A stretch of 64,000 bases of DNA from an uncultured Dehalococcoidales bacterium (GTDB taxonomy: Bacteria > Chloroflexota > Dehalococcoidia > Dehalococcoidales > UBA2162): assembly GCA_964453525.1 (NCBI GenBank), contig CAYVOV010000009.1:64686-128685 (forward strand). The letters run 5' to 3'. This document shows, in pieces, positions 2,439-54,649 of this stretch. Position 1 is the stretch's first letter. Each line of letters starts with the position of its first letter. A program made the position numbers and the translations under genes. The notes beneath the pieces were generated by a model that made no database searches, was not told where the DNA came from, and saw nothing but the letters and a program-made list of their open reading frames with translations.

Positions 2439-3116
2439 ATGAAATGGAGTAAATCGCTCGACATATTTGCTATATTTATGCTTTATGTCATTGTCATTAC
2501 TATTGGCATCATTATGATAGTTTACTTAGTAGTGACTCCGAATCTTGAAACAAATGATAAAGTTGGAATTACAATGGCGATAAGCACGGTGGCACTTGTC
2601 GTTGTTACAGGTGTCTATGCTTGGCACACGCATAAAATGGCTGAGGAGATGAGAGAGCAAAGGATAATAACATCACGTCCAGTAATCATTTTAAAACCTG
2701 TACATGAAAAAGATATTTGGGAGGGAAGTACTAAGGATTATTTTTCACATTTTGAAATTTCTAATGTAGGAAATAGCCCTGCAATCGAGTTGGAAAGTTC
2801 ACTTACGGCCAATAAACATGATTACTCCAGTAGTATCCGACAAACATATTTGAGGAAAGATGATGATCCCGTTAAATTTCGCCCTTATAATATTTCGAGT
2901 CTGGAACAAAATAAAACATACTACCTTATTTGCGAATATCAAAACGTATTTCCTTATGATGTTCAAAAACCGTTCTATCAAACGTGTTTACCTTTTAAAA
3001 TGAGGGAATCCGGCGAAAAAGGAAAAATATACATTGTAGCTGGCGAATTAGAATTTACAGAAGTATCAGAAGAAGAACGTATTGATGCGTTCGGAAGTAG
3101 GAGTAAACCAAAATGA
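2439..3116 (+). CDS. hypothetical membrane protein (2 N-terminal TM helices; paralogue of 22700..23428)
   Basis: GGAGG lies 7 nt upstream of the ATG. There are two hydrophobic helices, then EQRIITSRPVIIL and FEISNVGNSPA motifs that are shared with ORF 22700. The gene is AT-rich (~33% G+C by hand count of one 60-nt line) inside the trp operon. Confidence 0.7.
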   Translation: MKWSKSLDIFAIFMLYVIVITIGIIMIVYLVVTPNLETNDKVGITMAISTVALVVVTGVYAWHTHKMAEEMREQRIITSRPVIILKPVHEKDIWEGSTKDYFSHFEISNVGNSPAIELESSLTANKHDYSSSIRQTYLRKDDDPVKFRPYNISSLEQNKTYYLICEYQNVFPYDVQKPFYQTCLPFKMRESGEKGKIYIVAGELEFTEVSEEERIDAFGSRSKPK

Positions 3117-3205
3117 TTAAAGAAGCAATTCAGACCATTATTGGTAACAGGCCGGCTACCAGCTGCTCCGTTCGCCCTTCGACAGGCTCAGGGCGAATGA
3201 TGTAA
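3113..3205 (+). other. duplicated remnant of the trpD RBS/start (30-codon ORF running into a repeat)
   Basis: atgattaaagaagcaatt (3113-3130) matches the real trpD start atgattagagaagcaatt (3819-3836) at 17/18 nt. MIKEAIQTII compares with MIREAISMLV. The ATG overlaps the stop of ORF 2439..3116 (ATGA). Confidence 0.75.
3168..3199 (+). repeat. 'Rep-2' hairpin (gttcgYcc-ttcgacaRgctca-ggRcgaac family)
   Basis: ccgttcgcccttcgacaggctcagggcgaatg lies 12 nt upstream of the GIY-YIG start. The same unit recurs at 3484, 3553 and 3749. Confidence 0.85.
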
Positions 3206-3210
3206 AGCAA

Positions 3211-3543
3211 ATGAGTTTTTGGGTTTATATTTTACTATGTGCAGATAACTCCTACTACACCGGACATACTGACAATCTTGAGGAGCGCATCGCTAAACAT
3301 CAGACCGGTGAAATTACCGGCTATACATCCAGCAGACGTCCGGTTAAATTACTTTTTACACAGGAGTTCTCCACCAGGGAGGAAGCTCTGGCCCGTGAGC
3401 GGCAGGTTAAAGGATGGCGTCGTAGCAAGAAGGAGGCAATGATACGGGGAGATTGGGATGAGGTGTCTCGCCTGGCTCATGAGGGTTCGTCCTTCGACAA
3501 GCTCAGGACGAACGGGTATCGACCAAAGATGAGTGAATGGTAA
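3211..3543 (+). CDS. GIY-YIG nuclease family protein (URI-domain, COG2827-like)
   Basis: FWVYILLCADNSYYTGHTDNLEERIAKHQTG...REEALARERQVKGWRRSKKEAMI is the canonical small GIY-YIG pattern. The last ~20 codons (SSFDKLRTNG...MSEW) are read from repeat sequence. Confidence 0.85.
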   Translation: MSFWVYILLCADNSYYTGHTDNLEERIAKHQTGEITGYTSSRRPVKLLFTQEFSTREEALARERQVKGWRRSKKEAMIRGDWDEVSRLAHEGSSFDKLRTNGYRPKMSEW

Positions 3544-3790
3544 ACCATGGGGGCCCGCCCTTCGACAAGCTCAGGGCGAACGGAAAACGGGCTCATCAAG
3601 AATGGAAAAGAGGCTCAGCATGAACGCATTTAAATCAAAGAAGAGTGAATAATAATCTCAGGACGAACGCATCTGAATCGAAGAGGAGTGAATGATAATC
3701 TCAGGACGAACGCATTTAAACCAGAGAGGAGTGAATAATAAACTTGTGGGCGTTCATCCTTCGACAAGCTCAGGACGAACGGATAATAAA
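3484..3790 (+). repeat. cluster of Rep-2 hairpins plus ~44-bp tandem units
   Basis: Hairpins at 3484-3515, 3553-3583 and 3749-3782. Tandem units ctcaggRcgaacgcatYtRaaYcRaagaRgagtgaatRataa at ~3502, 3613, 3657 and 3700. Confidence 0.85.
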
Positions 3791-4871: not shown

Positions 4872-4988
4872 GTCATTCTGAGTGAAACGAAGAATCTCGG
4901 GGTGGGGAAGATAATATACTTAAAACCCCACCATGCCGAGACCCTTCGCGGAGTTTGCACTGAGCAGAGCGAATGTGCTCTGGGTGAC
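4872..4988. repeat. inverted pair of 'gtcattc...gaatgac/gggtgac' family hairpin units between trpD and trpC
   Basis: gtcattctgagtgaaacgaagaatctcggggtgggga (4872-4908) and ccccaccatgccgagacccttcgcgg...ctctgggtgac (4926-4988). Confidence 0.75.
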
Positions 4989-5012
4989 ATGACTCTACCA
5001 AGAGAGTAAAAA

Positions 5013-11255: not shown

Positions 11256-12053
11256 TTGAAAGAATTGGAAAAAGTAATCGTTGTCAAGATTGGCGGAGCG
11301 ACACTCGGCAGTCATGATACCGCTATCGAAGACATAGTCGAGCTTCAGAAGCAGGGTAAGCCGGTGCTGGTCGTACATGGCGGTGGTAAGCTTATAACCG
11401 AGTGGCTAAAAAAGCAGGGTGTAGAGACAAGCTTCGTCAGAGGCGAGCGGGTAACTGACGGACCGACCCTTGAGGTTGCAACGGCGGTGCTTGCCGGACT
11501 GGTGAATAAGGATATCGTTAGTGCTATTAATGCTCTGGGTGGCAAGGCAGTCGGTATAAGCGGCGTTGACGGGGCTGTTATCCAGGGTAAGATTGCCGAA
11601 AAGGAGAAGGGCTATGTTGGCACCGTGACCAAGGTAGATACGAGCCTGCTGGAGGCTCTACTTGAGGCGGGCTTTACTCCGGTGGTCTCCCCGATTGGGC
11701 TTAATTCCGGTGACAGACCGGCTGATGAACCGCCGACGCTCAACTATAATGCCGATGTCATCGCCGGTGAAATAGCTGCTGCCATAAATGCTGAAAGGCT
11801 GGTCTTTCTGACAGATGTGGAGGGCGTCAGTGATGAATCAGGTAAACTTATTTCTTTAATGACTCCTGAAGAAGCCAATGCTTTGCTAGATTCGGGTGTT
11901 GCCTCTGGTGGAATGATTCCCAAGATTAAAGCCTGCCTTACAGCTTCATCAGTTACCCCATCGACGTGTATTATAGATGGTAGAAAATCCCACGCCCTCT
12001 TGAGCGAGATAGGGGGAAAAAGTAAGGGAACGGTTATACAACAGGGGAGTTAA
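11256..12053 (+). CDS. argB: acetylglutamate kinase
   Basis: VVKIGGA, VLVVHGGG and NYNADVIAGEIA motifs. TTG start. Confidence 0.92.
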   Translation: MKELEKVIVVKIGGATLGSHDTAIEDIVELQKQGKPVLVVHGGGKLITEWLKKQGVETSFVRGERVTDGPTLEVATAVLAGLVNKDIVSAINALGGKAVGISGVDGAVIQGKIAEKEKGYVGTVTKVDTSLLEALLEAGFTPVVSPIGLNSGDRPADEPPTLNYNADVIAGEIAAAINAERLVFLTDVEGVSDESGKLISLMTPEEANALLDSGVASGGMIPKIKACLTASSVTPSTCIIDGRKSHALLSEIGGKSKGTVIQQGS

Positions 12054-12061
12054 AGGGGGGT

Positions 12062-12208
12062 GAAGCCCCTAATCCAAGACTGATATCCCCCTTTAGAAAA
12101 GGGGGATTAAGGGGGATTTTATAAATCCCTATCGGTCTCCCCTTCGACAGGCTCAGGGTAAGCTCTTTACGAAAGGGAGAGGTTAAAAAAAGAAATTCTA
12201 AGGAATGA
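12062..12208 (+). repeat. Rep-1 composite repeat (copy 2)
   Basis: gaagcccctaatccaagactgatatccccctttagaaaagggggattaagggggattttataaatccctatcggtctccccttcgacaggctcagggtaagctctttacgaaagggagaggttaaaaa. Confidence 0.9.
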
Positions 12209-14889: not shown

Positions 14890-16253
14890 GCAATATACGC
14901 GGTCGGTTTCAAAAAGACGCCGATAATGCAGCAGCGCAATATACCACATCGATTTCCTGTGACTGGCGACTCTACTCCTACGATATTGCCGGTAGCATCG
15001 CTCATGCCCGGATGCTGGCCAAACAGGACATAATTACCAACCAGGAAGCGGAGGCAATTGTTAAAGGGCTGGAAACTATCGGTAGGGAAATAGAAGAAGG
15101 CACCTTCAAATTCAAACCGGAGCTTGAAGACATCCATATGAATATAGAAGCCGGACTGATTGAGAAAGTCGGCGAGGTGGGGGGCAAGCTCCATACTGCC
15201 CGCTCCAGAAACGACCAGATTGCCCTGGATATGCGTTTATTTACAAGAGACGCAATTAATGACACGCTATCCGCTCTGAAGAAATTCCAGCAGGCTTTAA
15301 TAAATCTGGCTGAGGCAAACCGGGATGTGATTATGCCCGGATATACTCATTTACAGAGAGCGCAGCCGGTCTTATTCGCCCATCACCTGCTTGCCTATTT
15401 TGAGATGCTGCAGCGAGATGCTGAGCGGTTCAGTGACTGCTTGAAGCGGGCGGATGTTATGCCCCTCGGCAGCGGGGCTGTTGCCGGTGTTGCCTATAAT
15501 ATCGACCGTGAGTTCCTGGCTAAAGAGCTTGGTTTCAGTCGGGTAAGCGGTAACAGCATGGATGCTGTCTCGGACCGGGACTACATCATCGAGTATGAAG
15601 CTGCAGCAAGTATCTGCATGATGCACCTCTCCCGCCTGGCCGAGGAGATTATTCTCTGGTGCTCAGCCGAGTTCGATTTTATTGAGCTTGATGATGCCTA
15701 TGCCACCGGCAGCAGCATTATGCCGCAGAAGAAAAATCCGGACATCGCCGAGCTTGTCCGGGGCAAGACGGGACATGTTTACGGCAGCCTGGTGGCTTCA
15801 CTGACTATGATGAAGGCTCTGCCGCTTTCCTATAACCGGGATTTGCAGGAGGATAAGGAGGAATTCTTCGACTGCGTGGATACGTTGCTCTCAAGTTTGG
15901 AGGTATTTACCGGGATGGTTGCCACCCTGCGGATTAAAGCCGAAAACACCGGTCAGGCAGCCGGAGAGGGATATATACTGGCTACCGACCTTGCCGACTA
16001 CCTTGTGAAGAAGGGAGAAGCCTTCCGGAACGCCCATGATATAGTTGCCAGGCTGGTAAGCTATGCCGAGGAAAAAGGTAGTTCCTTTGATAAGATTACC
16101 CTGGACGAATATAAAGAATTCTCATCCATGTTTGAAGATGATGTTTTCTCGGTTACCGTGAAGTCGTCTCTTGAAGCAAGGGATAACATCGGTGGTACCG
16201 CTCCGAAGCAGGTAGCGGAGGCGCTGAAACGCGCCAGGAAAATGATAGGTTAG
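14886..16253 (+). CDS. argH: argininosuccinate lyase
   Basis: LHTARSRNDQ, GYTHLQRAQP and GSSIMPQKKNPD (fumarate-lyase signature) motifs. 4-nt overlap with argG. Confidence 0.96.
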   Translation: MSNIRGRFQKDADNAAAQYTTSISCDWRLYSYDIAGSIAHARMLAKQDIITNQEAEAIVKGLETIGREIEEGTFKFKPELEDIHMNIEAGLIEKVGEVGGKLHTARSRNDQIALDMRLFTRDAINDTLSALKKFQQALINLAEANRDVIMPGYTHLQRAQPVLFAHHLLAYFEMLQRDAERFSDCLKRADVMPLGSGAVAGVAYNIDREFLAKELGFSRVSGNSMDAVSDRDYIIEYEAAASICMMHLSRLAEEIILWCSAEFDFIELDDAYATGSSIMPQKKNPDIAELVRGKTGHVYGSLVASLTMMKALPLSYNRDLQEDKEEFFDCVDTLLSSLEVFTGMVATLRIKAENTGQAAGEGYILATDLADYLVKKGEAFRNAHDIVARLVSYAEEKGSSFDKITLDEYKEFSSMFEDDVFSVTVKSSLEARDNIGGTAPKQVAEALKRARKMIG

Positions 16254-16344
16254 TTTATAAAATCCATCCTCTGCCCCTTCCTTTTCAAAAGTAAGGGGGG
16301 CAAGATAAGATATTAAAGCTTCAGGTATATTAATAAAAAGAGGT

Positions 16345-16505
16345 GTGAAGAGGGACAAAGCCCCTTCTCCAAGACCAATATCCCCCTTTTTAAAAGGGGG
16401 ATTAAGGGAGATTTAATCATAAATCCCTCTCAATCTCCCCTTCGACAGGCTCAGGGCAAGCTCTTTACGAAAGGGAGAGGTTAAAAAGGAATTTTGGAGA
16501 ATGAC
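16345..16505 (+). repeat. Rep-1 composite repeat (copy 3)
   Basis: gaagagggacaaagccccttctccaagaccaatatccccctttttaaaagggggattaagggagatttaatcataaatccctctcaatctccccttcgacaggctcagggcaagctctttacgaaagggagaggttaaaaaggaatttt. Confidence 0.9.
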
Positions 16506-16569
16506 ATTTGATGTGAAGTTCTTAATTAAGGGGGTGAGGTTGACAAAAAACCTTCGGAGGGGGTAGCTG

Positions 16570-17244
16570 ATGCCTGAAAGTAGACCTAAAATAAAAATAG
16601 CGCCATCCATTCTATCGGCGGACTTCGCCCGCCTTGGGGAGCAGGTTGCCGAGGTCACAGAAGCCGGTGCCGACTATATCCATGTTGATATAATGGACGG
16701 GCATTTCGTGCCAAATATAACAATAGGGCCGGCAGTGGTAGCGGCTATCCGTCCTCATACCAGCATACCGCTGGATGTGCACCTGATGATTGAAGAGCCG
16801 CAGCAGTACATAAAACAGTTCGTTGATGCCGGGTCTGACATTATCACCGTTCATGCGGAAGCCTGCCCTCACCTCCACGGCACGGTACAGGCGATTAAGA
16901 AATCCGGTGTTAAGGCAGGTGTCTCAATTAATCCCGGCACTCCGCTGGAGGAACTGAGCGAAATTCTGACTTACCTTGACCTTGTACTGGTGATGTCGGT
17001 CAATCCGGGCTTTGGAGGACAGGCTTTTATCGAGGAATCGCTGGACAAGATAGCGCGGTTAAGGGCCGAGCTTGATAAAAGAGGGTTGTCTGCCGAGCTT
17101 GAGGTTGACGGCGGTATTAATACTGAAGTAGCGCCACGAGTGGTCAAGGCTGGTGCCAGGGTGCTGGTGGCCGGAGCAGCGGTTTTCAATGCGGGAAAGT
17201 CTGTCAAAGAAGCGATACAGCAGATAAGAGATAGCCTGGGTTAG
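16570..17244 (+). CDS. rpe: ribulose-phosphate 3-epimerase
   Basis: [27 protein letters not shown] and [11 protein letters not shown] motifs. Confidence 0.95.
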
Positions 17245-17299
17245 AAGCAGTATAATGCACAGGCCTGTGAGGGATTAAACACACTGGTATAATTATAGA

Positions 17300-20236: not shown

Positions 20237-22696
20237 ATGTCGCTGAATACTGAGCCTCTGCGCAAAATCATCGAGCTTGAGTGCAATAAAGGCTATGCGG
20301 ATTCGACGGTAATTGGTGGTCTGGATAAATTTCTCCATAACTGGGCCGGTCAGGCCGCAGAGTCTATTACCTCCCCAAAGCTCCTACGCCGTTTTAACAG
20401 ACTTCATCTTGATAAATCAGACTACTCCTCGCTATCCAGGGAGCAGCGTAAAGAGTGGATAGACAACCTACTCAAATTCCTTGCCGAAGTCGAGGATAGT
20501 GAAAAAGAAACAGTTGAAGTCAGTCAACCCCCAGAAGTCAGTAAACTACCACCGAAACTGAGACCAAAACGGGTGACATCTACCATATCAATCGATTCAC
20601 CGATTACCGTTGTCAAAGGTATCAGTTCAGCGATGGCAACACGGTTCGGTAAACTCGGCGTCAGAACCGTCCGTGATTTACTTTATTTCTTCCCTCACCG
20701 CCACCTCGACTACAGCCGGAGGAAATATATCTCACAGCTTACCGAGGGCACTGAAGAGACTATCGTGGCTAACGTCTGGCAGGCACAGGAGACGAGGCTC
20801 GGCGGAAGGCGGAGGAGTACCGAGGCTATCGTCGGCGATGAAACCGGTAATGTCAGGGTGGTATGGTTTAACAATCCGTATGTAGCAAAAGCATTGACCA
20901 CGAATAAGAGGGTTGTTATCAGCGGCAGGGTCGGCTTGTTCAGGGGACAGCATGTTTTTCAGTCTCCTGAGTGGGAGCTTGTCGAAGACAAAGAACTGAT
21001 TCATGTCGGTCGCCTGGTTCCTCTCTATTCCCTCACCCAGGGGTTACGCCCCCGCCAGGTAAGGAAGCTAATGAAGAATGTCATTGACACGTGGGCATGG
21101 CAGGTCGAGGAGTTTCTTCCGCTGGAGTTGAGGGAAAGACAGAAGCTGCTTGAGTTGCCCCAGGCAATCAGCCAGGCGCACTTCCCCGATGATGACGGTA
21201 TGAAAACACGGGCAAGGGTACGCCTAGCTTTTGATGAGCTTTTTCTCCTTCAACTGGGCGTGCTGAGCAAGAAGCGCGACTGGCAGGAAAGCCAGCCGGG
21301 CAGTGCCATAGCCATCGAGAAAGAGGTACTGGACACTTTTTTGAAATCTCTGCCCTTTGAGCTTACCGGAGCCCAGCAAAGAGCACTTGATGAGCTACTT
21401 ACCGACCTCGAGAGACGGCAGGCGATGTCCCGTTTACTCCAGGGTGACGTTGGCAGTGGCAAGACGGTGGTAGCCACCGCCGCATTGCTTATGGCGGCAG
21501 CCAATGGCTGCCAGGGAGCACTGATGGCACCGACTGAAATTCTTGCCACCCAGCATTTTTCTACAATCTGCCAGCTTCTTTCGGGAACAGCAGACCCGGA
21601 AGATGAAGATGACTATCTAAAAAGCTATTCAGGCCTTTTATCCCGCCCCCTTACCGTGGCTCTGCTGATAGGCGCCATTACCCAGACCAAGAAGCGCGAG
21701 ATTCAGCAGCGAGTACAGGACGGGAGCATAGATATCGTCATTGGCACTCACGCCCTTATTCAGAAGGAGGTGGAGTTCCATAAGCTGGGGCTGGTGGTGA
21801 TAGATGAACAGCACCGCTTCGGCGTTGAGCAGCGCTCCGCCCTGCGTCAGAAAGGCTATAACCCTCACCTTTCGGTAATGACGGCAACGCCGATTCCCCG
21901 GACACTTGCCCTGACCCTTTACGGCGACCTCGACCTCTCGGTGATTGACGAGCTTCCCCCGGGAAGGCTGGCGGTGAAGACGAAATGGCTCAAGCCGTCA
22001 CAGAGGAAAAGCGCCTATGACTTCATAAAAAAACAGGTGAGTGAGGGAAGGCAGGCATTCATTATCTGCCCGTTAATCGAGGAATCGGAGGCCGTGCAGG
22101 CGAGGGCGGCTGTCGCCGAGTACGAGCGCCTGGCAAATGAAGTCTTTCCCGAACTGAAGCTGGGGCTGCTCCACGGACGTATATCATCGGCGGAAAAGGA
22201 AGAGGTGATGCAGCGCTTCTACTCCGGCGAGCTTCATATCCTGGTGGCAACGCCGGTGGTTGAGGTGGGCATCGATGTACCGAATGCCACGGTAATGCTT
22301 GTCGAGAGCGCCGACAGATTCGGCCTGTCTCAACTGCACCAGTTCCGGGGCAGGGTGGGCAGAGGGCAGGAACAGAGCTACTGCATGCTGCTGGCGGAGA
22401 ACCCTTCGCAGGTGGCGAGGCAGCGCCTGGATATAATAGAAAGCACGCAGGACGGCTTCAAGCTTGCCGAGGAGGATTTAAAGCTGCGCGGACCCGGGGA
22501 ATTCTTCGGCACCCGCCAGAGCGGCCTGCCCGACCTCCGGATGGCGAAAATCTCCGATGTCCATCTACTTGAAATAGCCCGCAACGAAGCAATGAAACTC
22601 TTCGAAAAAGATAAAAACCTCAAAAACCCCGAACACACACTCCTCGTCAAAGAACTCGCCCGCGTCTGGACAGAACAGGCCGGTGAGTGGAGTTAG
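20237..22696 (+). CDS. recG: ATP-dependent DNA helicase RecG
   Basis: LTGAQQRAL, GDVGSGKT (Walker A), VIDEQHRFGV (DEQH), TATPIPRTL, LHQFRGRVGRG. Confidence 0.96.
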   Translation: MSLNTEPLRKIIELECNKGYADSTVIGGLDKFLHNWAGQAAESITSPKLLRRFNRLHLDKSDYSSLSREQRKEWIDNLLKFLAEVEDSEKETVEVSQPPEVSKLPPKLRPKRVTSTISIDSPITVVKGISSAMATRFGKLGVRTVRDLLYFFPHRHLDYSRRKYISQLTEGTEETIVANVWQAQETRLGGRRRSTEAIVGDETGNVRVVWFNNPYVAKALTTNKRVVISGRVGLFRGQHVFQSPEWELVEDKELIHVGRLVPLYSLTQGLRPRQVRKLMKNVIDTWAWQVEEFLPLELRERQKLLELPQAISQAHFPDDDGMKTRARVRLAFDELFLLQLGVLSKKRDWQESQPGSAIAIEKEVLDTFLKSLPFELTGAQQRALDELLTDLERRQAMSRLLQGDVGSGKTVVATAALLMAAANGCQGALMAPTEILATQHFSTICQLLSGTADPEDEDDYLKSYSGLLSRPLTVALLIGAITQTKKREIQQRVQDGSIDIVIGTHALIQKEVEFHKLGLVVIDEQHRFGVEQRSALRQKGYNPHLSVMTATPIPRTLALTLYGDLDLSVIDELPPGRLAVKTKWLKPSQRKSAYDFIKKQVSEGRQAFIICPLIEESEAVQARAAVAEYERLANEVFPELKLGLLHGRISSAEKEEVMQRFYSGELHILVATPVVEVGIDVPNATVMLVESADRFGLSQLHQFRGRVGRGQEQSYCMLLAENPSQVARQRLDIIESTQDGFKLAEEDLKLRGPGEFFGTRQSGLPDLRMAKISDVHLLEIARNEAMKLFEKDKNLKNPEHTLLVKELARVWTEQAGEWS

Positions 22697-22699
22697 GGT

Positions 22700-23428
22700 G
22701 TGAAAATGATTAATAATACTATCAAGATTGGATTGAAAGTAATAATTGTTCTGTGTTTACTAACGCTTCCAATCGTATTTATATCGCTGTGGAATGTACC
22801 TTTGGCTCAAAGTATATTCCCGTTCCTAGAAATTTCAACAGAATTCCCCTCAAAAATAATCGCTGGTTACACTGCGGTATTAGCTTGGGCTACAATATTA
22901 CTCGGATATTTTGCTTTTTCCACGATACAAAATAATAAAGAGCAAAGGTTAGACAGTTTTCGTCCTTTACTTGTACCAGCTGGTGGCTCACTTGGTATTG
23001 GATATATAAAACACTCAGAATCAGGATATGAGAGTCTCTCAGGTGAAAACATGCTTCATGTGCACAATATCGGTGTGGGACCTGCCGAAAATATAGCCAT
23101 ACGACTGGAACTACGGTCTGATAAAGGAGCACATAATGTTCAATTGGATGAGATGTTAACTTTCGTTGAGCCGCTTGCATCAGGTCATAAGGGAATAGTT
23201 CGTCAATGGAAGACCATTGAACAGGAGGTTGAAATCTACGATGACCATTGGCTAGTTATTAGCTATGATGACTTGTTCCACCGTCATTTTGAGACGGAGG
23301 CTCGATACATAAAGGAAAGTTGTAGTTGGGTAAGTATGAGAACCATACAAGTAAGAAAACTTCGTCCGCGCGGAAGGGATATAGATTACTACTCAGGTCT
23401 TTCTGGCGATAGCGAAGAACAGAATTAA
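22700..23428 (+). CDS. hypothetical membrane protein (2 N-terminal TM helices; paralogue of 2439..3116)
   Basis: Starts 3 nt after the recG stop. Two hydrophobic helices are followed by EQRLDSFRPLLV and LHVHNIGVGPA motifs, matching ORF 2439. AT-rich relative to its flanks. Confidence 0.7.
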   Translation: MKMINNTIKIGLKVIIVLCLLTLPIVFISLWNVPLAQSIFPFLEISTEFPSKIIAGYTAVLAWATILLGYFAFSTIQNNKEQRLDSFRPLLVPAGGSLGIGYIKHSESGYESLSGENMLHVHNIGVGPAENIAIRLELRSDKGAHNVQLDEMLTFVEPLASGHKGIVRQWKTIEQEVEIYDDHWLVISYDDLFHRHFETEARYIKESCSWVSMRTIQVRKLRPRGRDIDYYSGLSGDSEEQN

Positions 23429-23486
23429 GTTATGATTAGGTAGCAGTACAGGTTTTTCCCTGTTAAGGATAAGCCAAGGAGTATCT

Positions 23487-23507
23487 AAGAGGGGCTTCGC
23501 CCCTCTT
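23487..23507 (+). terminator. GC-rich UUCG-loop hairpin ('Rep-3' core), terminator-like
   Basis: aagaggggc-ttcg-cccctctt followed by cctagtttcttcc, 59 nt after the stop of ORF 22700. Confidence 0.4.
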
Positions 23508-23517
23508 CCTAGTTTCT

Positions 23518-23688
23518 TCCCCCTCTCCTTTGATAAAGGAGAGGGGGATACAGGGGGTGAGGTTTCATTAATTTTATTGCCTGCTCCACCCTGAGATTCT
23601 TCGCCCACCAGAGGTGGGCTCCAGAATGACACCATGTGATTTGTCATGCTGGAGGGAGCGCAGCGACCGAAGCATCTCAGGGAGGGGG
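23518..23688. repeat. Rep-3 second hairpin plus an inverted pair of 'ccaccctgagattcttcg...ccagaatgac' units
   Basis: cccctctcctttgataaaggagagggg; unit 23584-23630; inverted variant gtcatgctggagggagcgcagcgaccgaagcatctcagggaggg at 23643-23686. Confidence 0.85.
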
Positions 23689-23723
23689 TTAGAGAACAGC
23701 GGTCACGTGGTATAATCACTTTC

Positions 23724-24032
23724 GTGAAACAATATTATGTTTACATTATGTCTAATAAATCCGGCACTTTGTATACCGGGATAACTAATGATTTGGAGCA
23801 GCGTGTCTGCCAACACAAGAGCCAGCAAATCGAAGGTTTTACTAAAAAATACAGAGTTACCCACCTTCTATATTTTGAGTCCACTGATGACGTTACTACG
23901 GCAATTATGAGAGAAAAACAAATAAAAGGAATGCTAAGAAGTAAGAAAATCGAACTGATAAAAACAATCAATCCGCAGTTGAAAGATTTAAGTGGGGACT
24001 GGTTGGATAAGAATGGCACCTCCCCACCCTAA
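23724..24032 (+). CDS. GIY-YIG nuclease family protein (URI-domain, COG2827-like)
   Basis: KQYYVYIMSNKSGTLYTGITNDLEQRVCQHK...REKQIKGMLRSKKIELI. GTG 23724 is chosen so that the first beta-strand (YYVYI) is included; the start is uncertain (track ORF starts at 23646, ATG at 23748). TGgTATAAT lies at 23708-23716. The stop codon lies inside the downstream repeat. Confidence 0.8.
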   Translation: MKQYYVYIMSNKSGTLYTGITNDLEQRVCQHKSQQIEGFTKKYRVTHLLYFESTDDVTTAIMREKQIKGMLRSKKIELIKTINPQLKDLSGDWLDKNGTSPP

Positions 24033-24205
24033 GATTCTTCGCCCACCAGAGGTGAGCTCCAGAATGACAGTTGAGTTTGCGATTACCGCATCACCCGCCG
24101 AAGGCGGACTCCTCACAACGACAAAGGAAGTGCTCCTTGCAATGACAGAAGAAACACTTCTGTGCAATGACAGAGGAAATGCTACATACCATGACACATT
24201 GATTA
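24021..24205 (+). repeat. direct copy of the 45-nt unit plus a run of short '...gcaatgac' hairpin units
   Basis: tccccaccctaagattcttcgcccaccagaggtgagctccagaatgac (24021-24068) differs from 23584-23630 at about 2-3 positions. It is followed by cccgccgaaggcgg, aaggaagtgctccttgcaatgac and agaagaaacacttctgtgcaatgac. Confidence 0.85.
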
Positions 24206-24451
24206 CCCCCTCCGGTCAGCTTTGTGTTATAATTTTTGGGTTGACACCTCAGATAACTCAGACCGGAGGATACTGACACGGAAATACTTGAAATACGGAA
24301 TAGATTAGCCGGGCTTTTAAACGGGGCGGCGGCTGAAGCCCAGAAGGCAGGCTCGCTGCCCTCGGTAGCTTTACCGGAGGTAACCATTGAGCGTCCCCAG
24401 AATCCGGAGCACGGAGACTATGCCTCAAGCTTTGCTCTAAGACTGGCGAGA

Positions 24452-25948
24452 GTGGCCGGAAAGAAGCCAATGGATATTGCCGATGACCTGATAAGCCTGA
24501 TTGCTCCCGGTCCGGAGATTGAGAGTATTGTTACCGCTGAGCCGGGATTCATTAATTTCACTCTGAGCGGCGAATGGCTTGCCAGCCAGGTTGAAACAAT
24601 CCTGAAAACCGCTGATAGCTACGGTAATATCGACCTCGGTAAAGGCAGCCGGGTGCAGGTAGAGTTCGTCAGCATCAATCCAACCGGACCTCTGCACGTC
24701 GGGCACGGACGTGGCGCCGTTCTCGGCAGCACACTGGCAGATGTGCTGGCTGCGGCCGGGTATAACGTGGAGAAGGAGTATTACTTTAACGATGCCGGCA
24801 ACCAGATGGACGCCTTTTACCGCTCACTGTACGCCCGTTATGTGCAGGCTATGGGCAAAGATGTGGAAATGCCTGATGATGGCTACCACGGCAATTACAT
24901 GGTCGATATGGCAAAAGAGCTTGTAACCACTGAAGGAGACCGCTTTCTCAAGCTTGGCGAGGCTGAGGCTATTGTCGAACTTGGCAAACTGGGGCTGGAG
25001 AAGGTTATTAGCGGAATTAAGGATGAGCTCCACCTTCTCGGAGTTACCTTCGATAGCTGGTTTACCGAGCGCAGCCTGTACGAGAACGGCCAGTATGACC
25101 GGGTTATGGAGTTGTTGCGTCAGGGAGGTTTTATCGCCGATAAGGAAGGTGCCACCTGGTTTGTTTCAACTGCCCTCGGTGAGGATAAAGATAATGTGGT
25201 GGTGAGGGGGGACGGCTCACCCACTTACTTTGCCACCGATATCGCCTATCATTATAACAAGTTTATCGAGCGTAAATTCGACCGGATAATTGACATCTGG
25301 GGCGCTGACCACCAGGGTCATGTTCCCCGTCTCAAGGCAGCCGTTGGCGCTCTCGGCATTGACCCCGAACAACTTGAGATTATTATTCACCAGATGGTAA
25401 CCCTGCGGCGCGGCGGCGAGATAGTCCGAATTTCCAAGCGCAGCGGAGATATGATTACCCTGAGTGAGCTTATAGAAGAGGTAGGAAAAGATGCCTGCCG
25501 TTTCTTCTTTTTAGCCCGCTCGGCTAACAGCCAGATGGACTTCGACCTCGAGCTGGCTAAAAAAGAATCGCAGGACAATCCCGTCTACTATGTCCAGTAC
25601 GCTCACGCCCGTATCGCCAGTATCCTCCGCCTGGCTGAAGAGAGAGGGATTGATTACAGTGACGGGGACGTTTCACTGATAAAGACCGAGCCGGAGCTAA
25701 CCCTGATACGCAAGCTGTTACTCCTACCGGAACTCATCGAGCTTGCAGCCCGGAATCTGGAGCCTCACCACCTCACCTATTACGCTCAGGACCTGGCTAC
25801 AGTATTCCACAGCTTCTACAAGCAGTGCCGGGTGGTATCGGATGATGCTGCCCTTACCAAAGCTCGATTGAAGCTTGTCGAGGCAGCAAAGATAGTCCTG
25901 GCAAGAACCCTTCACCTGATGGGAATGACTGCTCCGGAGAGGATGTAG
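24452..25948 (+). CDS. argS: arginine--tRNA ligase (conserved N-terminus continues upstream to ~24260 without a canonical start)
   Basis: [15 protein letters not shown] (HIGH) and the C-terminal anticodon-binding region. The in-frame upstream translation [14 protein letters not shown]...[20 protein letters not shown] is typical ArgRS N-terminus. The GTG at 24452 is only the first canonical start codon. Confidence 0.9.
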
Positions 25949-25953
25949 GAATA

Positions 25954-26499
25954 CTATCCCAAATCTCTGGCATCGAGTCTTTCCTTTTTATACATTTCAG
26001 CCCATTCCTCGTAGATTTTATGGCTGTTCTCTATCCACCATACCTGCTCGTCGGAGATTTTTCCTTTAATCTCGGCGGGGACGCCGACGACGAAAGACCT
26101 CTCCGGTATTATCATCTTTTCCCTGACCACGCAGCCGGCGGCAATTATCGAGTAGTCGCCAATCTCAACATCGTGAAGGATTGAGGCCATAATACTTATC
26201 ATTACATTGTTGCCTATTTTTTTACCGTTGGAAATGGCGCCGTGTCCAAAGACCACATTATCGCCGATAGTGACATCACCAATCCAGGGGATGGTGGGTG
26301 TCCCTGAATGAATAACGCAATTATCTTCAATAGCGGTATTCTTACCAATTGTTATTTTGCCCATATCGCCCCTGATTACCGCCCCGGGCCAGATACTTGA
26401 ATTTTCACCAATCTCCACGTCACCGATTACATATGCCGTTTCACTGATGAAGGCGGAATCGGCTATTTTCGGTGTCTTGCCGTTAAAGCTCCTTATCAT
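25954..26499 (-). CDS. gamma-carbonic-anhydrase-like hexapeptide-repeat protein
   Basis: MIRSFNGKTPKIADSAFISETAYVIGDVEIGENSSIWPGAVIRGD, with left-handed beta-helix repeats. Confidence 0.85.
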   Translation of the reverse strand: MIRSFNGKTPKIADSAFISETAYVIGDVEIGENSSIWPGAVIRGDMGKITIGKNTAIEDNCVIHSGTPTIPWIGDVTIGDNVVFGHGAISNGKKIGNNVMISIMASILHDVEIGDYSIIAAGCVVREKMIIPERSFVVGVPAEIKGKISDEQVWWIENSHKIYEEWAEMYKKERLDARDLG

Positions 26500-26620
26500 T
26501 ACTTTTACTTTCCCTCCTGATAGACCAATAATATCAGTTAGCTTCAAAAGCGGTCAAACCTGCCTTGTTGTTATGTTACTGTTATGTTACACTTTTCAAG
26601 TGAGGAGATTTTTGTAAAAG

Positions 26621-29149: not shown

Positions 29150-29300
29150 AGGAGAGTGAAGAAGGGCGAAACTCCTCCACCAAGACCAATCTCCCCTTTT
29201 TTTAAAGGGGGATTTATAAAAAATCCCTCTCAGTCTCCTTCAGGATGAATCCCTTTACGAAAGGGAGAGGTACAAAAGGAATTTTATGGGCTGATAAACA
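29150..29300 (+). repeat. Rep-1 composite repeat (copy 4, degenerate)
   Basis: gaagaagggcgaaactcctccaccaagaccaatctcccctttttttaaagggggatttataaaaaatccctctcagtctccttcaggatgaatccctttacgaaagggagaggtacaaaaggaatttt. Confidence 0.85.
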
Positions 29301-36134: not shown

Positions 36135-36370
36135 TAAGAGGGGCTCCGCCCCCTCTTCTATGGCTATTTCTTCCTTCCCCTTGAGAAGGGGCCTTGCCTC
36201 AAAAGTCATTCTGGAGTCCGCCTCTGGCGGACGAAGAATCTCAGGGTGGGGAGTCAAGGTAATCCCCTCCTCCCTGAGACCCTTCGCTACGCTCCAGGGT
36301 GACAGGAACACACGACTTTTAGGGCAAGACTTTGGGAAGGGGAAGGGGGATACAGGGGGATAGGGTTCTA
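36135..36370. repeat. nested repeats: Rep-3 hairpins interrupted by 'gtcattctggag...agaatctcagggtgg' units
   Basis: taagaggggctccgccccctctt (36135-36157); gtcattctggagtccgcctctggcggacgaagaatctcagggtgggga (36205-36252); ccctgagacccttcgctacgctccagggtgac; ggggaagggggatacagggggatagggtt. Confidence 0.8.
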
Positions 36371-42182: not shown

Positions 42183-42863
42183 ATGGAAATTTGTGTCTAC
42201 TGCGGAAAGCCTATTACTGAACTACCTTACCTTGACGGTGTGCCTTTACATGGCGCATGTATAGATGCGTGGATGGTTCAAGAAGAAGTGGATGGGATTA
42301 TTACATGGGCGCAGCTAGTAAATGAAGAGACAAAACAGATAGAAAAAGAGGAAAGGTTTACTAGAGACTTACTTGTGGGTAGTTTTTTTAAGAACCTTGC
42401 TGCGACCATTCTGTATAATGCGGGATATGAAGTTTATCCATTTGGATACGAGAGCTTTCTAGCGGGATTGAAAAGGCCACTTTACAACGTAGAATTGCGT
42501 CAAAGTAATGTAGCGGAACGAATTCGCTCCGCGCCTGACATGGTTGTACTTGATAGAGACCAGCATTCTTTGTTTTTAGTCGAAGTGAAATTTAGAGGTA
42601 GACTTTGGGATGATCGGGAGGCAGACATCTATATAAATTTATATAAAAAATATTGGAATGAATCAGTTATTTTTCTTATTTGTCCGAGAGGAAAAATATT
42701 TTATGCGCAATTTGTAAAGGAATTAAACCGGGTAGATAATAAATTTCCTGTTTCTGAAGACTTCTTACCTTTGGAGGAAGTCTTTACACGCATTTCATGG
42801 GAACATCCAGTTTCAAAAGGATTTTATTCAGGATTGGTAAAAGCTGTTTCAAAGAACCTATGA
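42183..42863 (+). CDS. hypothetical protein with N-terminal Cys/His cluster and PD-(D/E)xK nuclease-like core
   Basis: CVYCG...H..C. FFKNLAATILYNAGYEVY resembles the helix-1 pattern of restriction-endonuclease-fold proteins. APDMVVLD...LFLVEVKFR gives D...E-x-K. AT-rich (~32% G+C in a hand-counted line). Confidence 0.6.
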   Translation: MEICVYCGKPITELPYLDGVPLHGACIDAWMVQEEVDGIITWAQLVNEETKQIEKEERFTRDLLVGSFFKNLAATILYNAGYEVYPFGYESFLAGLKRPLYNVELRQSNVAERIRSAPDMVVLDRDQHSLFLVEVKFRGRLWDDREADIYINLYKKYWNESVIFLICPRGKIFYAQFVKELNRVDNKFPVSEDFLPLEEVFTRISWEHPVSKGFYSGLVKAVSKNL

Positions 42864-48842: not shown

Positions 48843-49039
48843 GTCATTCTGCCCTTTGTCAAGTATGTAGTAAACTACAGCGGGAACCCGGAATTTCTAC
48901 ACTGTCATTCCCGCACCGTAAAAAGCACGGGGTAAACTCCAAGCGGGAATCAAGTACTACCACGCCGTCATTCCAGCGGAAGCTGGAATCCAGCGGGGGA
49001 AAACGGGGTCTGGATTCTCGGGTCAAGCCCGAGAATGAC
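48843..49039. repeat. array of 'gtcattcc...ggaatc / attctc...gagaatgac' hairpin units
   Basis: gtcattcccgcaccgtaaaaagcacggggtaaactccaagcgggaatc; gtcattccagcggaagctggaatc; tggattctcgggtcaagcccgagaatgac. Confidence 0.85.
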
Positions 49040-51226: not shown

Positions 51227-51311
51227 GGAGGGGTGTCCGAGAGGCCTAAGGAGGCGGTCTTGAAAACCGCTGTCCCGCAAGGGACCGTGGGTTCGAATCC
51301 CACCCCCTCCG
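51227..51311 (+). tRNA. tRNA-Ser (anticodon UGA)
   Basis: Acceptor GGAGGGG/CCCCTCC with discriminator G. Anticodon arm GCGGT-CTTGAAA-ACCGC. Long variable arm tgtcccgcaagggaccg. T arm GTGGG-TTCGAAT-CCCAC. CCA is not encoded. Confidence 0.93.
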
Positions 51312-54500: not shown

Positions 54501-54649
54501 ATACACTTTTTATGTATAGTCAGTTTCTAGATGAAAAAGGTGATAAAGATTATGCAAATAGACTAAGATCTCGTTTGGAGGATATAGAGAGTGAGATGAT
54601 GCAGCCTGAACCATACGATATTGATGTTGAGATTTATGAGGATGAGTGA
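51542..54649 (+). CDS. CN-hydrolase (nitrilase-fold) - NB-ARC STAND ATPase - TPR fusion protein
   Basis: aa 1-300: IIVFPEYS (E83), KKSKSKWE, VAPCIDS (C189), in the order and context of the Glu-Lys-Cys triad. aa ~495-720: GMPGIGKT (K508), LVIDDL (D586/D587), RIFLISS, GHPLTAKI, VHPLIRKYF. aa ~780-1010: TPR-like repeats. Confidence 0.85.
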   Translation: MLRLHLCQIWYNPAYYDDGFDLLEEPTINLETQNSLGNLRALEQVRSLLAEQRSQYIQYIKEKIRNIIRWCGTREAEIIVFPEYSVPLEILQEVRELAMGEGINIVAGTHRVRFTQSTQDIYTEIGIDTSNFPNGSALAVVICSSGEVLVSTKKSKSKWEPNLNVDSEIDNTHEIEFKDSKLKVCVAPCIDSLNLDTISMFWKAEIGVPDLIVCPSLSPYTEMFDNAGGIFSSQEKVFALVNSAEYGGTGYNIPEQWLPYLSGNSPLHQKLPSSVEAVFELDVDINSFFLKKGTVISKPPCSHPVIFPFAYEKNNQWLENYGKIKEEVIQLVSENDYDDAIDWIDSALSEQTIPFPDIIVEKLKDIRHRRIPLYSGDMDALKDSFELVTINDSTEDSQEFYSNRVERALETLIRVFKESDKSPSKQLVDTMSALKEIQLRLGVERAPVSSYGTPEELEQRLTSLAYSASESTVASFQNRGPRLDQLREIISQGSERVIVLTGMPGIGKTDLVKNFFIKVFTDWQPIWINVAEGSTLSRIVAQIGYSLGVKMDADSLGSSTDKVFRSNLQKIFRILFGNQRIALVIDDLRDVRSSSRDYKHLQAFIEEAVQVKQYTGSRIFLISSIAAPPLWMQQAGISRIHIRGLEEMYVKRVLEYQLRLAGMISDETVPDIPQALLDVIAGHPLTAKIAAIASESRGLQSLTEEVAMSELTTTLVNALLPQISLSSEESKVVNLISLLRLPIEVDLIKEIIDAKNLYTLAQRAVIDLDGNYFTVHPLIRKYFYDQIVPDDLKNLHKQAASYYKKIVQWDRLSNPSNLDAAFELVHHLALAGDFRELYDLRNLIYEEIYPAAKILYDQKQYDNALSIFIKLTEIRPHDFRVWAYVGRCYARKGQWNDCDESFERAIEYAELSKEPTWWLYRDWAHIHARYGHRERAQNLLTNAKNTGGSSDPSCLACQAVIYWRNNDKERAEQTFEAVLKINDKHAYTLFMYSQFLDEKGDKDYANRLRSRLEDIESEMMQPEPYDIDVEIYEDE

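Follow-up and report, generated by a model that had tools for sequence, protein, structure and literature searches.

The window, a 64-kb stretch of its source genome to whose positions all coordinates refer, contains a gap anchored upstream by recG (20237..22696, plus strand; an 819-aa ORF) and downstream by the argS ORF (24257..25948, plus strand). Both small genes found between these anchors are real. The first, TM2 (22700..23428, plus strand), starts just after the end of recG at 22696 and encodes a two-TM membrane protein. Its ORF comprises 242 aa from a GTG codon, and both the alignment with the syntenic locus L102 and a database call (P0001, 240 aa) favor the ATG at 22706 as the probable true start. 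The gene is AT-rich, with GC and GC3 values of 0.39 and 0.32, compared with 0.54 and 0.61 in recG. A terminator scan located a terminator-like GC hairpin with a T-rich tail after TM2 (23487..23507, plus strand), enclosed in a dispersed repeat (23486-23572) that has copies in L102 and at window positions ~36330 and ~42900. TM2 is probably co-transcribed with recG, the transcript ending at this hairpin of its own.

The second gene, GIY2 (23724..24032, plus strand, GTG start), encodes a minimal GIY-YIG nuclease and is separated from TM2 by the terminator-like hairpin and ~300 nt of REPs. One TGTC-tagged REP hairpin unit lies on the minus strand at 23596..23630 (TGTCATTCTGGAGCCCACCTCTGGTGGGCGAAGAATCTC), as part of a 46-nt direct repeat (D8, 23586-23631, 96% identity). 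Another, on the plus strand at 23643..23675 (TGTCATGCTGGAGGGAGCGCAGCGACCGAAGCATCTC), is separated by 48 nt from the start of GIY2, with its tag distal to the gene. Downstream, a minus-strand unit (24034..24068) forms part of a direct repeat (24024-24069) that overlaps the GIY2 stop codon. GIY2 is thus bracketed by inverted cognate REPs, namely those at 23643 (+) and 24034 (-).

A second pair of the same kind occupies 2439-3543, where the membrane protein gene TM1 (2439..3116, plus strand) precedes another minimal GIY-YIG nuclease gene, GIY1 (3211..3543, plus strand). D3-type hairpins flank GIY1 on the minus strand (3174..3577; at 3174-3194, 3489-3509, and 3557-3577), with further examples at 2342-2362 and 3747-3785. 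Their core (YCCTGAGC..CGAAGGR) is also that of the TGTC REPs; the outer tag differs, and the GTCA tag is absent. Repeats fill the spacers between the membrane and GIY genes in both pairs, and the two genes of each pair have a GC content of 0.35-0.49, compared with 0.52-0.56 in their flanks, the GIY1 value of 0.49 being near background. These observations bear out what a sequence-only reading had described, namely an AT-rich two-TM ORF directly after recG and, in both pairs, a GIY-YIG gene behind a repeat-filled spacer. That reading further took the pairs for two old or independent copies of a module, a claim to which we return below.

The recG-argS gap differs between related loci. recG is collinear with L102, L103, and L018 at 77-79% nucleotide identity, and on the argS side L102 is collinear over window positions 24336-26500 (75% identity). 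L102 has the order recG, a two-TM gene with the same N-terminus and another C-terminal domain, HicBA, and argS; a GIY gene is absent. L103 is collinear with recG through window position 22934, continues into another C-terminal domain, and ends at this gene. In L018, the 3' end of recG (79% nucleotide identity) is followed by ~175 nt, a REP-bracketed GIY gene, and HicB, with no two-TM gene; the GIY block is 82% identical at the nucleotide level to window 23663-24041. Each gene is therefore found without the other at the orthologous recG locus (GIY only in L018, two-TM gene only in L102). We conclude that the recG-argS gap is a variable accessory gap in which two unrelated passengers, TM2 and GIY2, assort independently, and in which close relatives have swapped the C-terminal domain of a protein as well as a toxin-antitoxin pair and a nuclease unit.

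TM2 itself consists of two parts. Its N-terminal two-TM coding segment (22700..22934, plus strand) was delimited by DNA collinearity with L102 and L103, which, at 77-78% identity, extends from recG as far as position 22934 of the window and breaks off abruptly there. Because this segment has diverged from L102 as much as recG has (77%), it was inherited vertically together with recG, and still its GC3 is only 0.31 (GC 0.34). The C-terminal part (22935..23428, plus strand) comprises the linker KEQRLDSFRP and a beta-sandwich domain with the motifs NIGVGPAEN and YDDLFHRHFETE. At this position, L102 and L103 encode an unrelated helical domain instead, and the proteins P0030-33 share only the N-terminus with TM2 (alignment A1). 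As judged from these alignments, the C-terminal domain is an exchangeable cassette.

The TM2 family comprises 33 clusters at 90% identity, and its named members come from Dehalococcoidales/Dehalococcoidia; P0002 is the closest homologue of TM2, and many members have a single TM helix. A family-profile search retrieved one locus only from the genome contigs and none from the viral contigs. Elsewhere, genes of this family are found in contexts with integrase, resolvase, Mrr, or DUF3854 genes, or after hisB, without GIY genes or REPs. We also considered two-TM genes as REP-flanked cargo and rejected this idea, given these contexts and the fact that the repeat following TM2 is shared with no relative other than the close one, L102.

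Besides its two TM helices, the AF2 model of TM2 (pLDDT 75.7) has a long linker helix and ~8 strands. Foldseek found no PDB match at E<=1e-3 for the soluble domain (model pLDDT 74), a check that the sequence-only reading had proposed, nor for the full-length model. The hits, all below significance, were generic Ig-like sandwiches (the Kir cytoplasmic domain, ApaG, and Asf1). In BFVD, the model matched three uncharacterised phage proteins (E 3e-5 to 5e-4), which are uninformative, with TM-scores of ~0.43 for the two best and 0.27 for the third. A TM2 profile search of PDB sequences returned no match at E<=1, and no Pfam, NCBIfam, PADLOC, or PHROG family matched TM2 or any of 76 members of the two-TM superfamily described below. 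Similar to Kir/KirBac channels, which were the top PDB hits, TM2 combines two TM helices with a subsequent cytoplasmic Ig-like beta-sandwich; identity with such a channel was rejected at E values of 8.5e-3 or worse and TM-scores of 0.2-0.3, with no pore helix or selectivity-filter motif. Based on the positive-inside rule, both termini of TM2, and hence its beta-sandwich, are predicted to be cytoplasmic. Our guess is that TM2 could belong to the accessory gene pool as a binding or adaptor module that is tethered to the membrane and faces the cytoplasm; it is a guess because the model is of moderate confidence and no fold match is significant.

TM1 and TM2 each have two predicted N-terminal helices and share, at matching positions, the motifs EQR-x4-RP-[VL][IL][IV] and N-[VI]-G-x-x-P-A, as the sequence-only reading had pointed out. 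Pairwise BLASTP similarity is weak (E 0.029). Comparison of the family profiles with hhalign nevertheless supports the proposed relationship, a distant one, with a probability of 98% and E values of 5e-14 to 7e-14 over 82 columns, compared with an E value of 0.014 in a reversed-template control. Without the TM helix, the alignment retains 54 columns at E 8.4e-7, and from 'RP' onward only 18 columns at E 0.015. In agreement, the TM2-family profile retrieved a TM1-family member at E 5.5e-8 in a search of 1.84 billion proteins. The homologous region thus extends from TM helix 2 across the EQR..RP linker to the NxGxGPA strand and no further (~54-80 columns), and we do not claim homology of the whole domain, since the TM helix and linker drive most of the hhalign E value. 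The two proteins belong to an uncharacterised superfamily centered on Dehalococcoidia and marked by the motifs RP(L/I)(L/V)xP, NxGxGPAxN, and YxDxFGRxFxT; TM1 and TM2 are its sole genes in the window.

Members of the TM1 family are found as trpG-X-trpD in Dehalococcoidia trp operons on five independent contigs (L010, L011-13, L097, L098/99), where GIY genes are absent. Their stop and start codons overlap with those of the neighboring genes, and this synteny spans lineages that are 44-68% identical. The analysis thereby brings to light a superfamily of membrane proteins that had no annotation and that includes a branch fixed in the trp operons of Dehalococcoidia. A membrane protein encoded in a trp operon is also known from actinobacteria (Trp_oprn_chp, PF09534). 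The likeness to the conserved TM1-family gene is an analogy only; TM1 has no Pfam match to PF09534, and phylum and operon position differ.

GIY1 and GIY2 are the only GIY-YIG loci in the 64 kb; within this stretch, such genes are not so densely scattered that adjacency to two-TM genes would be expected twice by chance. Both match PF01541 well above the cut-off of 22.6 bits (GIY2, 57.4 bits, E 1.9e-15; GIY1, 73 bits, E 2.5e-20). They are 34% identical to each other (E 5e-19) and, as had been read from the sequence, represent the same family in divergent form. Alignment A6 contains the invariant columns Y6, I7, Y16, G18, T20, R26, H30, R62, and E63 in GIY1 numbering, which correspond to Y7, I8, Y17, G19, T21, R27, H31, R63, and E64 in GIY2. 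By profile score and by the conserved Tyr, Arg, and Glu residues, both proteins are assigned to the GIY-YIG superfamily. E. coli YhbQ is a UPF0213/Slx1-like minimal GIY-YIG protein, and GIY1 and GIY2 are predicted to be nucleases of this UPF0213 or prokaryotic Slx1-like minimal class, consisting of the catalytic domain only. Among sequences of known structure, GIY2 matches PDB 1zg2 (E 5.7e-6) and 1ywl (E 2.3e-4). These are the UPF0213 proteins BH0048 (1ZG2) and EF2693 (1YWL), which likewise comprise only the catalytic domain with the conserved Tyr, Tyr, Arg, and Glu residues; proteins of their type have been described as a 'minimal Slx1-like' class (PMC1564403).

The conserved part of GIY1 and GIY2 measures ~90 aa, and their C-terminal tails read into REPs. 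In GIY1, the last ~20 codons run through a repeat unit, and repeat D3 (3480-3518) lies within the 3' end of the ORF. Neither of these proteins, nor TM2, matched PADLOC or PHROG families at E<=0.01, and a search of viral contigs with GIY1 was empty. TM1 had one marginal match in PHROGs, to a family of function unknown (E 0.0067). On these profile searches, neither the TM1/TM2 superfamily nor the GIY proteins belong to known PADLOC defense or PHROG phage families.

REPs are among the most abundant bacterial non-coding elements. GTAG REPs flank the gene of an IS200/IS605-like Y1 transposase (RAYT), and this pairing has become a model for replicators that act within a genome. The window holds ~11 REP units in 6 intergenic gaps, including GIY-free gaps with REPs of the same class at 1512-1611, 4872-4895, 36205-36303, and 48904-49039; Rfam has no family for these repeats. 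The tag, A-T stem start, and short tail that characterize CGTC REPs are present at 23596-23630, 23643-23675, and 24034-24068 around GIY2, as well as at 1512-1611, 4872-4895, and 48967-48989, and the window units TGTCATTCTGAG..CGAAGAATCTC and CGTCATTCCAGCGGAAGCTGGAATCCA fit the published definition (PMC3733652). CGTC REPs, the second large REP superfamily, were reported from Proteobacteria, Chlorobi, Bacteroidetes, Spirochaetes, and Thermotogae, include Neisseria dRS3/NIME and Rickettsia RPE-4/-6, and "lack a dedicated transposase" according to a survey that identified no enzyme as their partner (Di Nocera, De Gregorio & Rocco 2013; PMC3733652). Our repeats resemble them in a terminal CGTC tag that is often TGTC, an A-T stem start, a short unpaired tail (CCA/CTC), and the frequent arrangement as inverted dimers in intergenic DNA. 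They differ in their hosts, here a Dehalococcoidia-like genome and Planktothrix, in the long variable apical hairpin of many units, and in bracketing a GIY-YIG gene.

This last feature extends far beyond the window, as minimal GIY genes lie in TGTC/CGTC-tagged REP brackets in five phyla. The strict tag TGTCATNCNGAG reaches 10.6/kb within 100 nt of a GIY gene, compared with ~0.2/kb beyond 500 nt, and when only non-coding sequence of the same contigs is considered, tag density is still 5-fold higher near the gene (9.9/kb versus 2.0/kb). At least one REP unit lies within 250 nt of the GIY gene in 61 of 62 loci. Positions 5-9 are matched by an exact reverse complement in 286 of 367 units, with 11 compensating stem types. 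Brackets with (+) upstream of the gene and (-) downstream were observed 28 + 6 times, versus 8 + 0 times for their mirror image. Distant GIY-YIG genes on viral contigs are REP-free within 150 nt on both sides in 48 of 61 cases. The orientation of the flanking units is not fixed, with (+,-) in 28 of 65 loci, and we rejected a strict reading of the GIY unit as a 'TIR transposon', the (+,-) orientation being preferential only. Groups of 6-7 loci share common neighbors, which suggests that in many cases the GIY gene is passed on stably and shows no visible mobility.

Whether the two-TM and GIY-YIG genes form a module is decided by their co-occurrence elsewhere, which the sequence-only reading had not listed among its refuting conditions. 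No ORF of the two-TM superfamily was found at any of 80 metagenomic loci with GIY2 relatives, 47 of which have at least 1.2 kb of upstream sequence, and neither a GIY-YIG gene nor a REP unit adjoins TM-family genes at any of 11 distinct other loci. TM2 and GIY2 are therefore not a working pair; they are two unrelated passengers of one gap. From the earlier proposal of two old or independent modules, the independent origin and the absence of a recent duplication stand, and the module itself does not. A conserved functional pair present in two old copies, such as a sensor or effector with its nuclease, a toxin with its immunity protein, or a defense system, could account for the repetition of gene order and orientation within 64 kb by the only genes of either kind there, and for the GC content of all four genes, which is lower than that of their flanks. 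The occurrence of TM2-family relatives in contexts with integrase, Mrr, and deaminase genes, as is typical of defense islands, and a Planktothrix GIY gene located between MmeI and DISARM genes, would also suit such a system. We consider it highly unlikely in view of the missing co-occurrence, the solitary genes at the recG locus of relatives, the translational coupling of TM1 homologues within trp operons that have no GIY gene, the terminator-like hairpin and REPs that split TM2 from GIY2, and the lack of a match to PADLOC models. A shared history without shared function, in which both genes of each pair arrived on one AT-rich horizontally transferred fragment, is very unlikely as well: the AT-richness of both genes in each pair speaks for it, but the two-TM segment with its GC3 of 0.31 was inherited vertically with recG, L018 has the GIY block without TM2, TM1 is syntenic in trp operons of widely diverged lineages, and GIY1 is near background in GC content.

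The remaining alternative, which we regard as unlikely, holds that the GIY-YIG proteins are housekeeping repair nucleases of the YhbQ/UPF0213 type, that REPs merely accumulate near their genes, and that the adjacency to two-TM genes arose by chance. UPF0213 proteins have indeed been proposed to be repair enzymes of vertical descent (PMC1564403), the synteny of the GIY gene is conserved in several locus groups, and same-class REPs also occupy the four GIY-free gaps of the window. This explanation is difficult to reconcile with the enrichment of REPs beside GIY genes over other non-coding DNA of the same contigs and with the preference for inverted brackets. Moreover, the canonical CGTC REPs of Azospirillum AZO_p3 (4 of 4 in 49.9 kb) and Aeromonas (2 of 2 in 49.9 kb) all flank the GIY gene, GIY genes are evident insertions in housekeeping operons (sufB-GIY-sufC, TM1-GIY1-trpD), and no more than 21 kb separates the two 34%-identical copies of the window.

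We favor, with a probability of roughly 70%, a variable gap that holds independent passengers, TM2 and the REP-bracketed GIY2, and a separate history for module 1. Order of arrival differs between the two sites: at module 1, GIY1 and its REPs were inserted beside a membrane gene that had long resided in the trp operon, and at module 2, the GIY unit also occurs in a relative (L018) that has no two-TM gene. A false module can arise in this manner when unrelated accessory elements crowd into a few insertion-tolerant intergenic gaps. Both GIY genes of the window do lie directly downstream of its only two-TM superfamily genes, in the same orientation. Such a double adjacency is unlikely if genes are placed uniformly; with placement restricted to REP-bearing intergenic gaps, we estimate, without formal computation, that it has a chance of ~1-5%, so a lineage-specific functional or mechanistic link may exist. 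For example, breaks induced by GIY and REPs may promote cassette exchange.

The GIY-REP association is an observed one, though correlative only, and makes the GIY-YIG nuclease a candidate partner of the CGTC REPs. The GIY2 unit of ~430 bp (23643-24068), a Slx1-like nuclease gene in a TGTC/CGTC REP bracket, is analogous in architecture to the RAYT 'REPtron'. Each has a single small enzyme gene between inverted copies of a hairpin repeat dispersed in the genome, the repeats far outnumber the gene, and the repeat variant is genome-specific. The enzyme differs, being a GIY-YIG protein of ~95 aa without an HUH/Y1 domain, as does the tag (CGTC/TGTC, not GTAG); since PF01541 is the sole domain found, the GIY2 site is REPtron-like at most and not a RAYT member. 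In the proposed mechanism, the nuclease would recognize or cut the hairpin or cruciform of its cognate REPs, and the REPs and the GIY gene would be maintained or spread as REP copies recombine during repair. We tentatively propose, at somewhat less than even odds, that the dedicated enzymes so far missing for CGTC/TGTC REPs are the small GIY-YIG nucleases of the UPF0213/Slx1-like type and that GIY2 and GIY1 are two GIY-YIG 'REPtrons' of one Dehalococcoidia-like genome. If so, they would provide a second, mechanistically different route of REP propagation or maintenance beside RAYTs, and a role for very common proteins whose sole annotation is 'GIY-YIG nuclease family protein'. The association with REPs sets GIY1 and GIY2 apart from the interpretation of the UPF0213 family as vertical repair enzymes; the open-access literature we searched describes no REP association of UPF0213 proteins and, more generally, no link between GIY-YIG genes and REPs, although this does not prove novelty.

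Free-standing GIY-YIG homing endonucleases, such as the T4 Seg proteins and I-TevI, offer another comparison. Like them, GIY1 and GIY2 are small, selfish-looking GIY-YIG genes inserted between or within conserved genes, and their presence varies at one locus between relatives. Unlike them, they lack a NUMOD-type DNA-binding C-terminal domain, as no domain was found beyond the ~90-aa core, and they are bracketed by a hairpin repeat instead of a unique target site.

Being tight, cross-phylum, and geometrically regular, the GIY-REP link provides a concrete, testable partner candidate for CGTC REPs. GIY-REP brackets occur in isolates of Planktothrix, Spirosoma, Rhizobium, Neisseria (dRS3), Azospirillum, and Aeromonas. 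The inverted (+,-) bracket seen in the window recurs in Rhizobium, Aeromonas, and Azospirillum, as well as in the IMG/VR loci L130, L135, L164, and L166-168. In Aeromonas caviae, the 3' end of the GIY gene runs into the downstream REP, as it does at GIY2.

The main interest of this site lies in a GIY-YIG nuclease unit bracketed by REPs (hairpin repeats) and in an unannotated membrane-protein superfamily. As the sequence-only reading had described, two sites carry an ORF for a protein with two transmembrane (TM) helices together with a GIY-YIG ORF. At module 2, recG ends at 22696 and is followed by the AT-rich membrane-protein ORF TM2 (22700–23428), the nuclease ORF GIY2 (23724–24032) and argS; judging from a syntenic relative and a database gene call, TM2 more probably starts at ATG 22706 than at 22700. 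Module 1 lies in the trp operon, in the order trpE-trpG-TM1 (2439–3116)-GIY1 (3211–3543)-trpD. TM2 and TM1 have GC contents of 0.39 and 0.35, compared with about 0.53–0.56 in their flanks, and a GC3 of about 0.3 compared with about 0.6. GIY1 and GIY2 both match PF01541 and are 34% identical, in agreement with their description as divergent members of one family. Within the window, such genes are not densely scattered, a possibility that the earlier reading had raised for the genome, since tblastn against the whole 64 kb found no third GIY-YIG locus. The window has the look of a Dehalococcoidia genome, given that named relatives of its accessory genes belong to Dehalococcoidales/Dehalococcoidia MAGs.

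The two membrane proteins proved to be related. Their BLASTP match (E 0.029) is unconvincing by itself, but comparison of the family profiles (33 clusters for TM2, 142 for TM1) is significant, with a probability of 98% and E 7e-14 over 82 columns (reversed-template control, E 0.014). With the TM helix removed, the match persists at E 8.4e-7 over 54 columns, which run from the linker EQR..RP into the NxGxGPA strand; the 18 columns that begin at "RP" reach just E 0.015. When the TM2-family profile was run exhaustively against 1.84 billion representatives, it returned 255 proteins at E<=1e-3, including a TM1-family member (E 5.5e-8, profile positions 12–114). The two short motifs pointed out from the sequence thus represent the real conserved core. 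These alignments establish homology for no more than TM helix 2, the linker and the first strand; the remaining parts of the soluble domains are unalignable. The proteins, with the motifs RP(L/I)(L/V)xP, NxGxGPAxN and YxDxFGRxFxT, have no family match in Pfam, NCBIfam, PADLOC or PHROG and constitute an unannotated superfamily of membrane proteins, in which domains have been swapped at a conserved locus.

The proposal that membrane protein and nuclease form a unit fared less well, as co-occurrence was absent from either side. In L010, L011-13, L097 and L098/99, the TM1 homologue separates trpG from trpD, and stop and start codons overlap; one further homologue is flanked by IF-2B-family and PNP_UDP_1 genes. 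TM2 homologues are clustered with genes for an integrase, a resolvase, Mrr, a deaminase or DUF3854, or reside 3' of hisB and are followed by HicAB. In none of the homologue loci examined does a GIY-YIG gene or REP adjoin the membrane gene. Conversely, among the best 80 of at least 383 metagenomic loci with GIY2 relatives (54–77% identity), no ORF matches either membrane-protein profile. The pair is thus not supported as a module, and the view that the two pairs are independent and not a recent duplication was right. At module 1, GIY1 and its repeats were inserted beside a membrane gene that is the ancestral resident. The TM1-family gene is conserved and translationally coupled in Dehalococcoidia trp operons (trpG|X|trpD), and its GC3 stays at 0.29–0.43, versus about 0.55–0.6 in neighbouring trp genes, across lineages just 44–68% identical.

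The recG locus does not bear out the pairing either. In L018, a related contig, the recG 3' end (79% nucleotide identity) is followed by about 175 nt, a REP-bracketed GIY gene 82% identical to window 23663–24041, and HicB; the 2-TM gene is absent from this locus, so the module 2 nuclease unit is common to a relative without TM2. L102 (GCA_964396535.1; 1995–3560 versus window 22700–24336) and the window are collinear from recG as far as window position 22934, where the 2-TM coding part ends. L102 keeps the 2-TM N-terminus at 77% nucleotide identity up to that point, beyond which an unrelated helical C-terminal domain (P0030) follows, and then HicB/HicA, argS, a hexapeptide-repeat gene and trpS, the order from argS onward being that of the window. 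No GIY gene is present in this recG-argS locus; HicB and an apparently truncated HicA stand in place of the GIY unit. These comparisons therefore define the recG-argS gap as a variable slot whose occupants assort independently: a 2-TM gene whose C-terminal cassette can be exchanged, a GIY unit and a HicAB pair. Element L003 (618–1265) encodes a 2-TM protein with a similar helical domain, two genes away from a TM2-family gene. Within the 64 kb considered here, both GIY genes nevertheless lie directly downstream of both superfamily members, and we estimate the chance of this double adjacency at a few per cent (roughly 6–9 REP-bearing gaps in the window). There may accordingly be a lineage-specific link, for example if REP/GIY-induced breaks favoured cassette exchange at these gaps. 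A terminator-like hairpin (23487–23507) lies 3' of TM2.

In the AlphaFold2 model of TM2 (pLDDT 75.7; 74 for the soluble domain alone), two TM helices are followed by a long helix (residues 49–86) and a roughly eight-stranded beta-sandwich, which the charges around the helices (positive-inside rule) would place in the cytoplasm. The suggested Foldseek search gave no PDB match at E<=1e-3, and function is not readable from the fold. The weak best matches include Kir/KirBac channels, which likewise combine two TM helices with an Ig-like cytoplasmic domain, as well as ApaG and Asf1; BFVD matches are three uncharacterised phage proteins. Very tentatively, the 2-TM protein might be a membrane-tethered cytoplasmic binding module from the accessory gene pool. 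One branch of its superfamily became a fixed trp-operon gene.

GIY2 matches the UPF0213 structures 1zg2 and 1ywl, a class of minimal, prokaryotic Slx1-like GIY-YIG proteins (Dunin-Horkawicz et al., PMC1564403). On either side of GIY2 lies one copy of a 46-nt direct repeat (23586–23631 and 24024–24069, 96% identity), and the second copy overlaps the GIY2 stop codon. The repeat unit is a hairpin, TGTC-[ATNCY]-GAG-(variable apical hairpin)-CGA-[complement]-CTC, located here at 23596–23630 (minus), 23643–23675 (plus) and 24034–24068 (minus), with further units in the gaps 1512–1611, 4872–4895, 36205–36303 and 48904–49039. Hairpins flanking GIY1 have the core YCCTGAGC..CGAAGGR in common with the GIY2 repeats and a different outer tag. 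Hairpin repeats invaded four trp-operon junctions, trpE|trpG, trpG|TM1, TM1|trpD and trpD|trpC (1512–1611, 2233–2400, 3165–3785 and 4872–4990); in relatives, the two junctions compared, those at trpG|X|trpD, are overlapping. The clusters at 36205–36303 and 48904–49039 lack a GIY gene, and the latter includes a canonical CGTC-1-like unit, CGTCATTCCAGCGGAAGCTGGAATCCA (48967–48989).

The association between nuclease and repeat extends well beyond the window. Across the 80 loci with GIY2 relatives, the density of the strict tag is 10.6/kb at distances of up to 100 nt from the GIY gene and about 0.2/kb beyond 500 nt; in non-coding DNA alone, the two values are 9.9/kb and 2.0/kb. A repeat unit lies within 250 nt of the gene in 61/62 loci. 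Positions 5–9 have an exact complement in 286/367 units, and 11 compensating types of stem are represented. In 28/65 loci, the unit nearest the gene is (+) on the upstream side and (−) on the downstream side, against 8 with the mirror arrangement (6 versus 0 on viral contigs). The bracket recurs in cultured organisms of other phyla: Planktothrix agardhii (on plasmid p1, with the MmeI and DrmA genes on either side), Spirosoma oryzicola, Rhizobium sp. CIAT894, Neisseria gonorrhoeae (as dRS3 units), Azospirillum lipoferum 4B (between sufB and sufC) and Aeromonas caviae. A 49.9-kb stretch of the Azospirillum replicon has four canonical CGTC REPs, all of which flank the GIY gene; the sole two in 49.9 kb of Aeromonas bracket it, and the downstream one overlaps the 3' end of the gene, precisely the situation seen in the window. 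The Azospirillum gene (AZO_p3, record 255506–255799) sits within the suf operon, a parallel to GIY1 in the trp operon. In Planktothrix p1 (record 15404–17263), 11 TGTC-tag matches lie 5' of the GIY gene inside an annotated 4.7-kb MmeI-type restriction-modification gene; either REPs lie within the gene or the ORF as annotated is interrupted.

This GIY-YIG subfamily is thus tied to structurally constrained CGTC/TGTC hairpins by a tight, geometrically biased and cross-phylum association. The window units fit the CGTC-tagged REP superfamily, in which the tag is often changed to TGTC, the stem starts with A-T and the tail is short, and which includes Neisseria dRS3 (Di Nocera et al. 2013); that survey stated that CGTC REPs have no transposase of their own. 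For GTAG REPs, inverted copies bracket genes of the RAYT transposase; here, the same kind of bracket encloses a GIY-YIG nuclease, a new variation on the REP-plus-enzyme theme. Our search of open-access literature found no prior paper linking GIY-YIG nucleases with CGTC REPs. Given the analogy with Slx1, which cleaves in a structure-specific manner, and the absence of a DNA-binding domain, the nuclease would act on the hairpin or cruciform of its cognate REPs. Both the REPs and the GIY gene could then be maintained or spread through recombinational repair between REP copies.

Several other elements of the window deserve mention. A third AT-rich ORF (42183–42863, plus strand; 226 aa, GC 0.38, GC3 0.31) starts 22 nt past the lysS stop, carries a PD-(D/E)XK-like motif (GYEVYPFGYESF...PD...LVEVK) and is without a match in Pfam, PADLOC or PHROG. 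Judged by eye, its homologue is a gene (L006:3068–3658) that lies beside a TM2-family gene in an integrase-bearing element, and the dispersed repeat found 3' of TM2 also occurs 3' of this ORF. The AT-rich ORF 51542–54649 (plus strand; 1035 aa, GC 0.37), adjoining a tRNA gene (51227–51311), combines a nitrilase-like N-terminus (PADLOC RT_UG5-nitrilase, E 3.6e-5) with an NB-ARC/STAND NTPase domain and TPR repeats, and is a candidate Avs-like defence gene in a tRNA-adjacent island. Repeats of a separate dispersed family, about 100 nt long and with the motif CCCCCTTT.GAAAAGGGGGAT..AAGGGGGATTTTATAAATCCCT, occupy at least four intergenic gaps (2233–2330, 12053–12197, 16348–16495 and 29159–29285). 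Finally, a 9/27-nt periodic array of the GCTTCGGCAGCTTTCCTGG type (58931–59200) within the minus-strand ORF 58643–59476 probably encodes a low-complexity Ala/Glu/Lys-rich segment.
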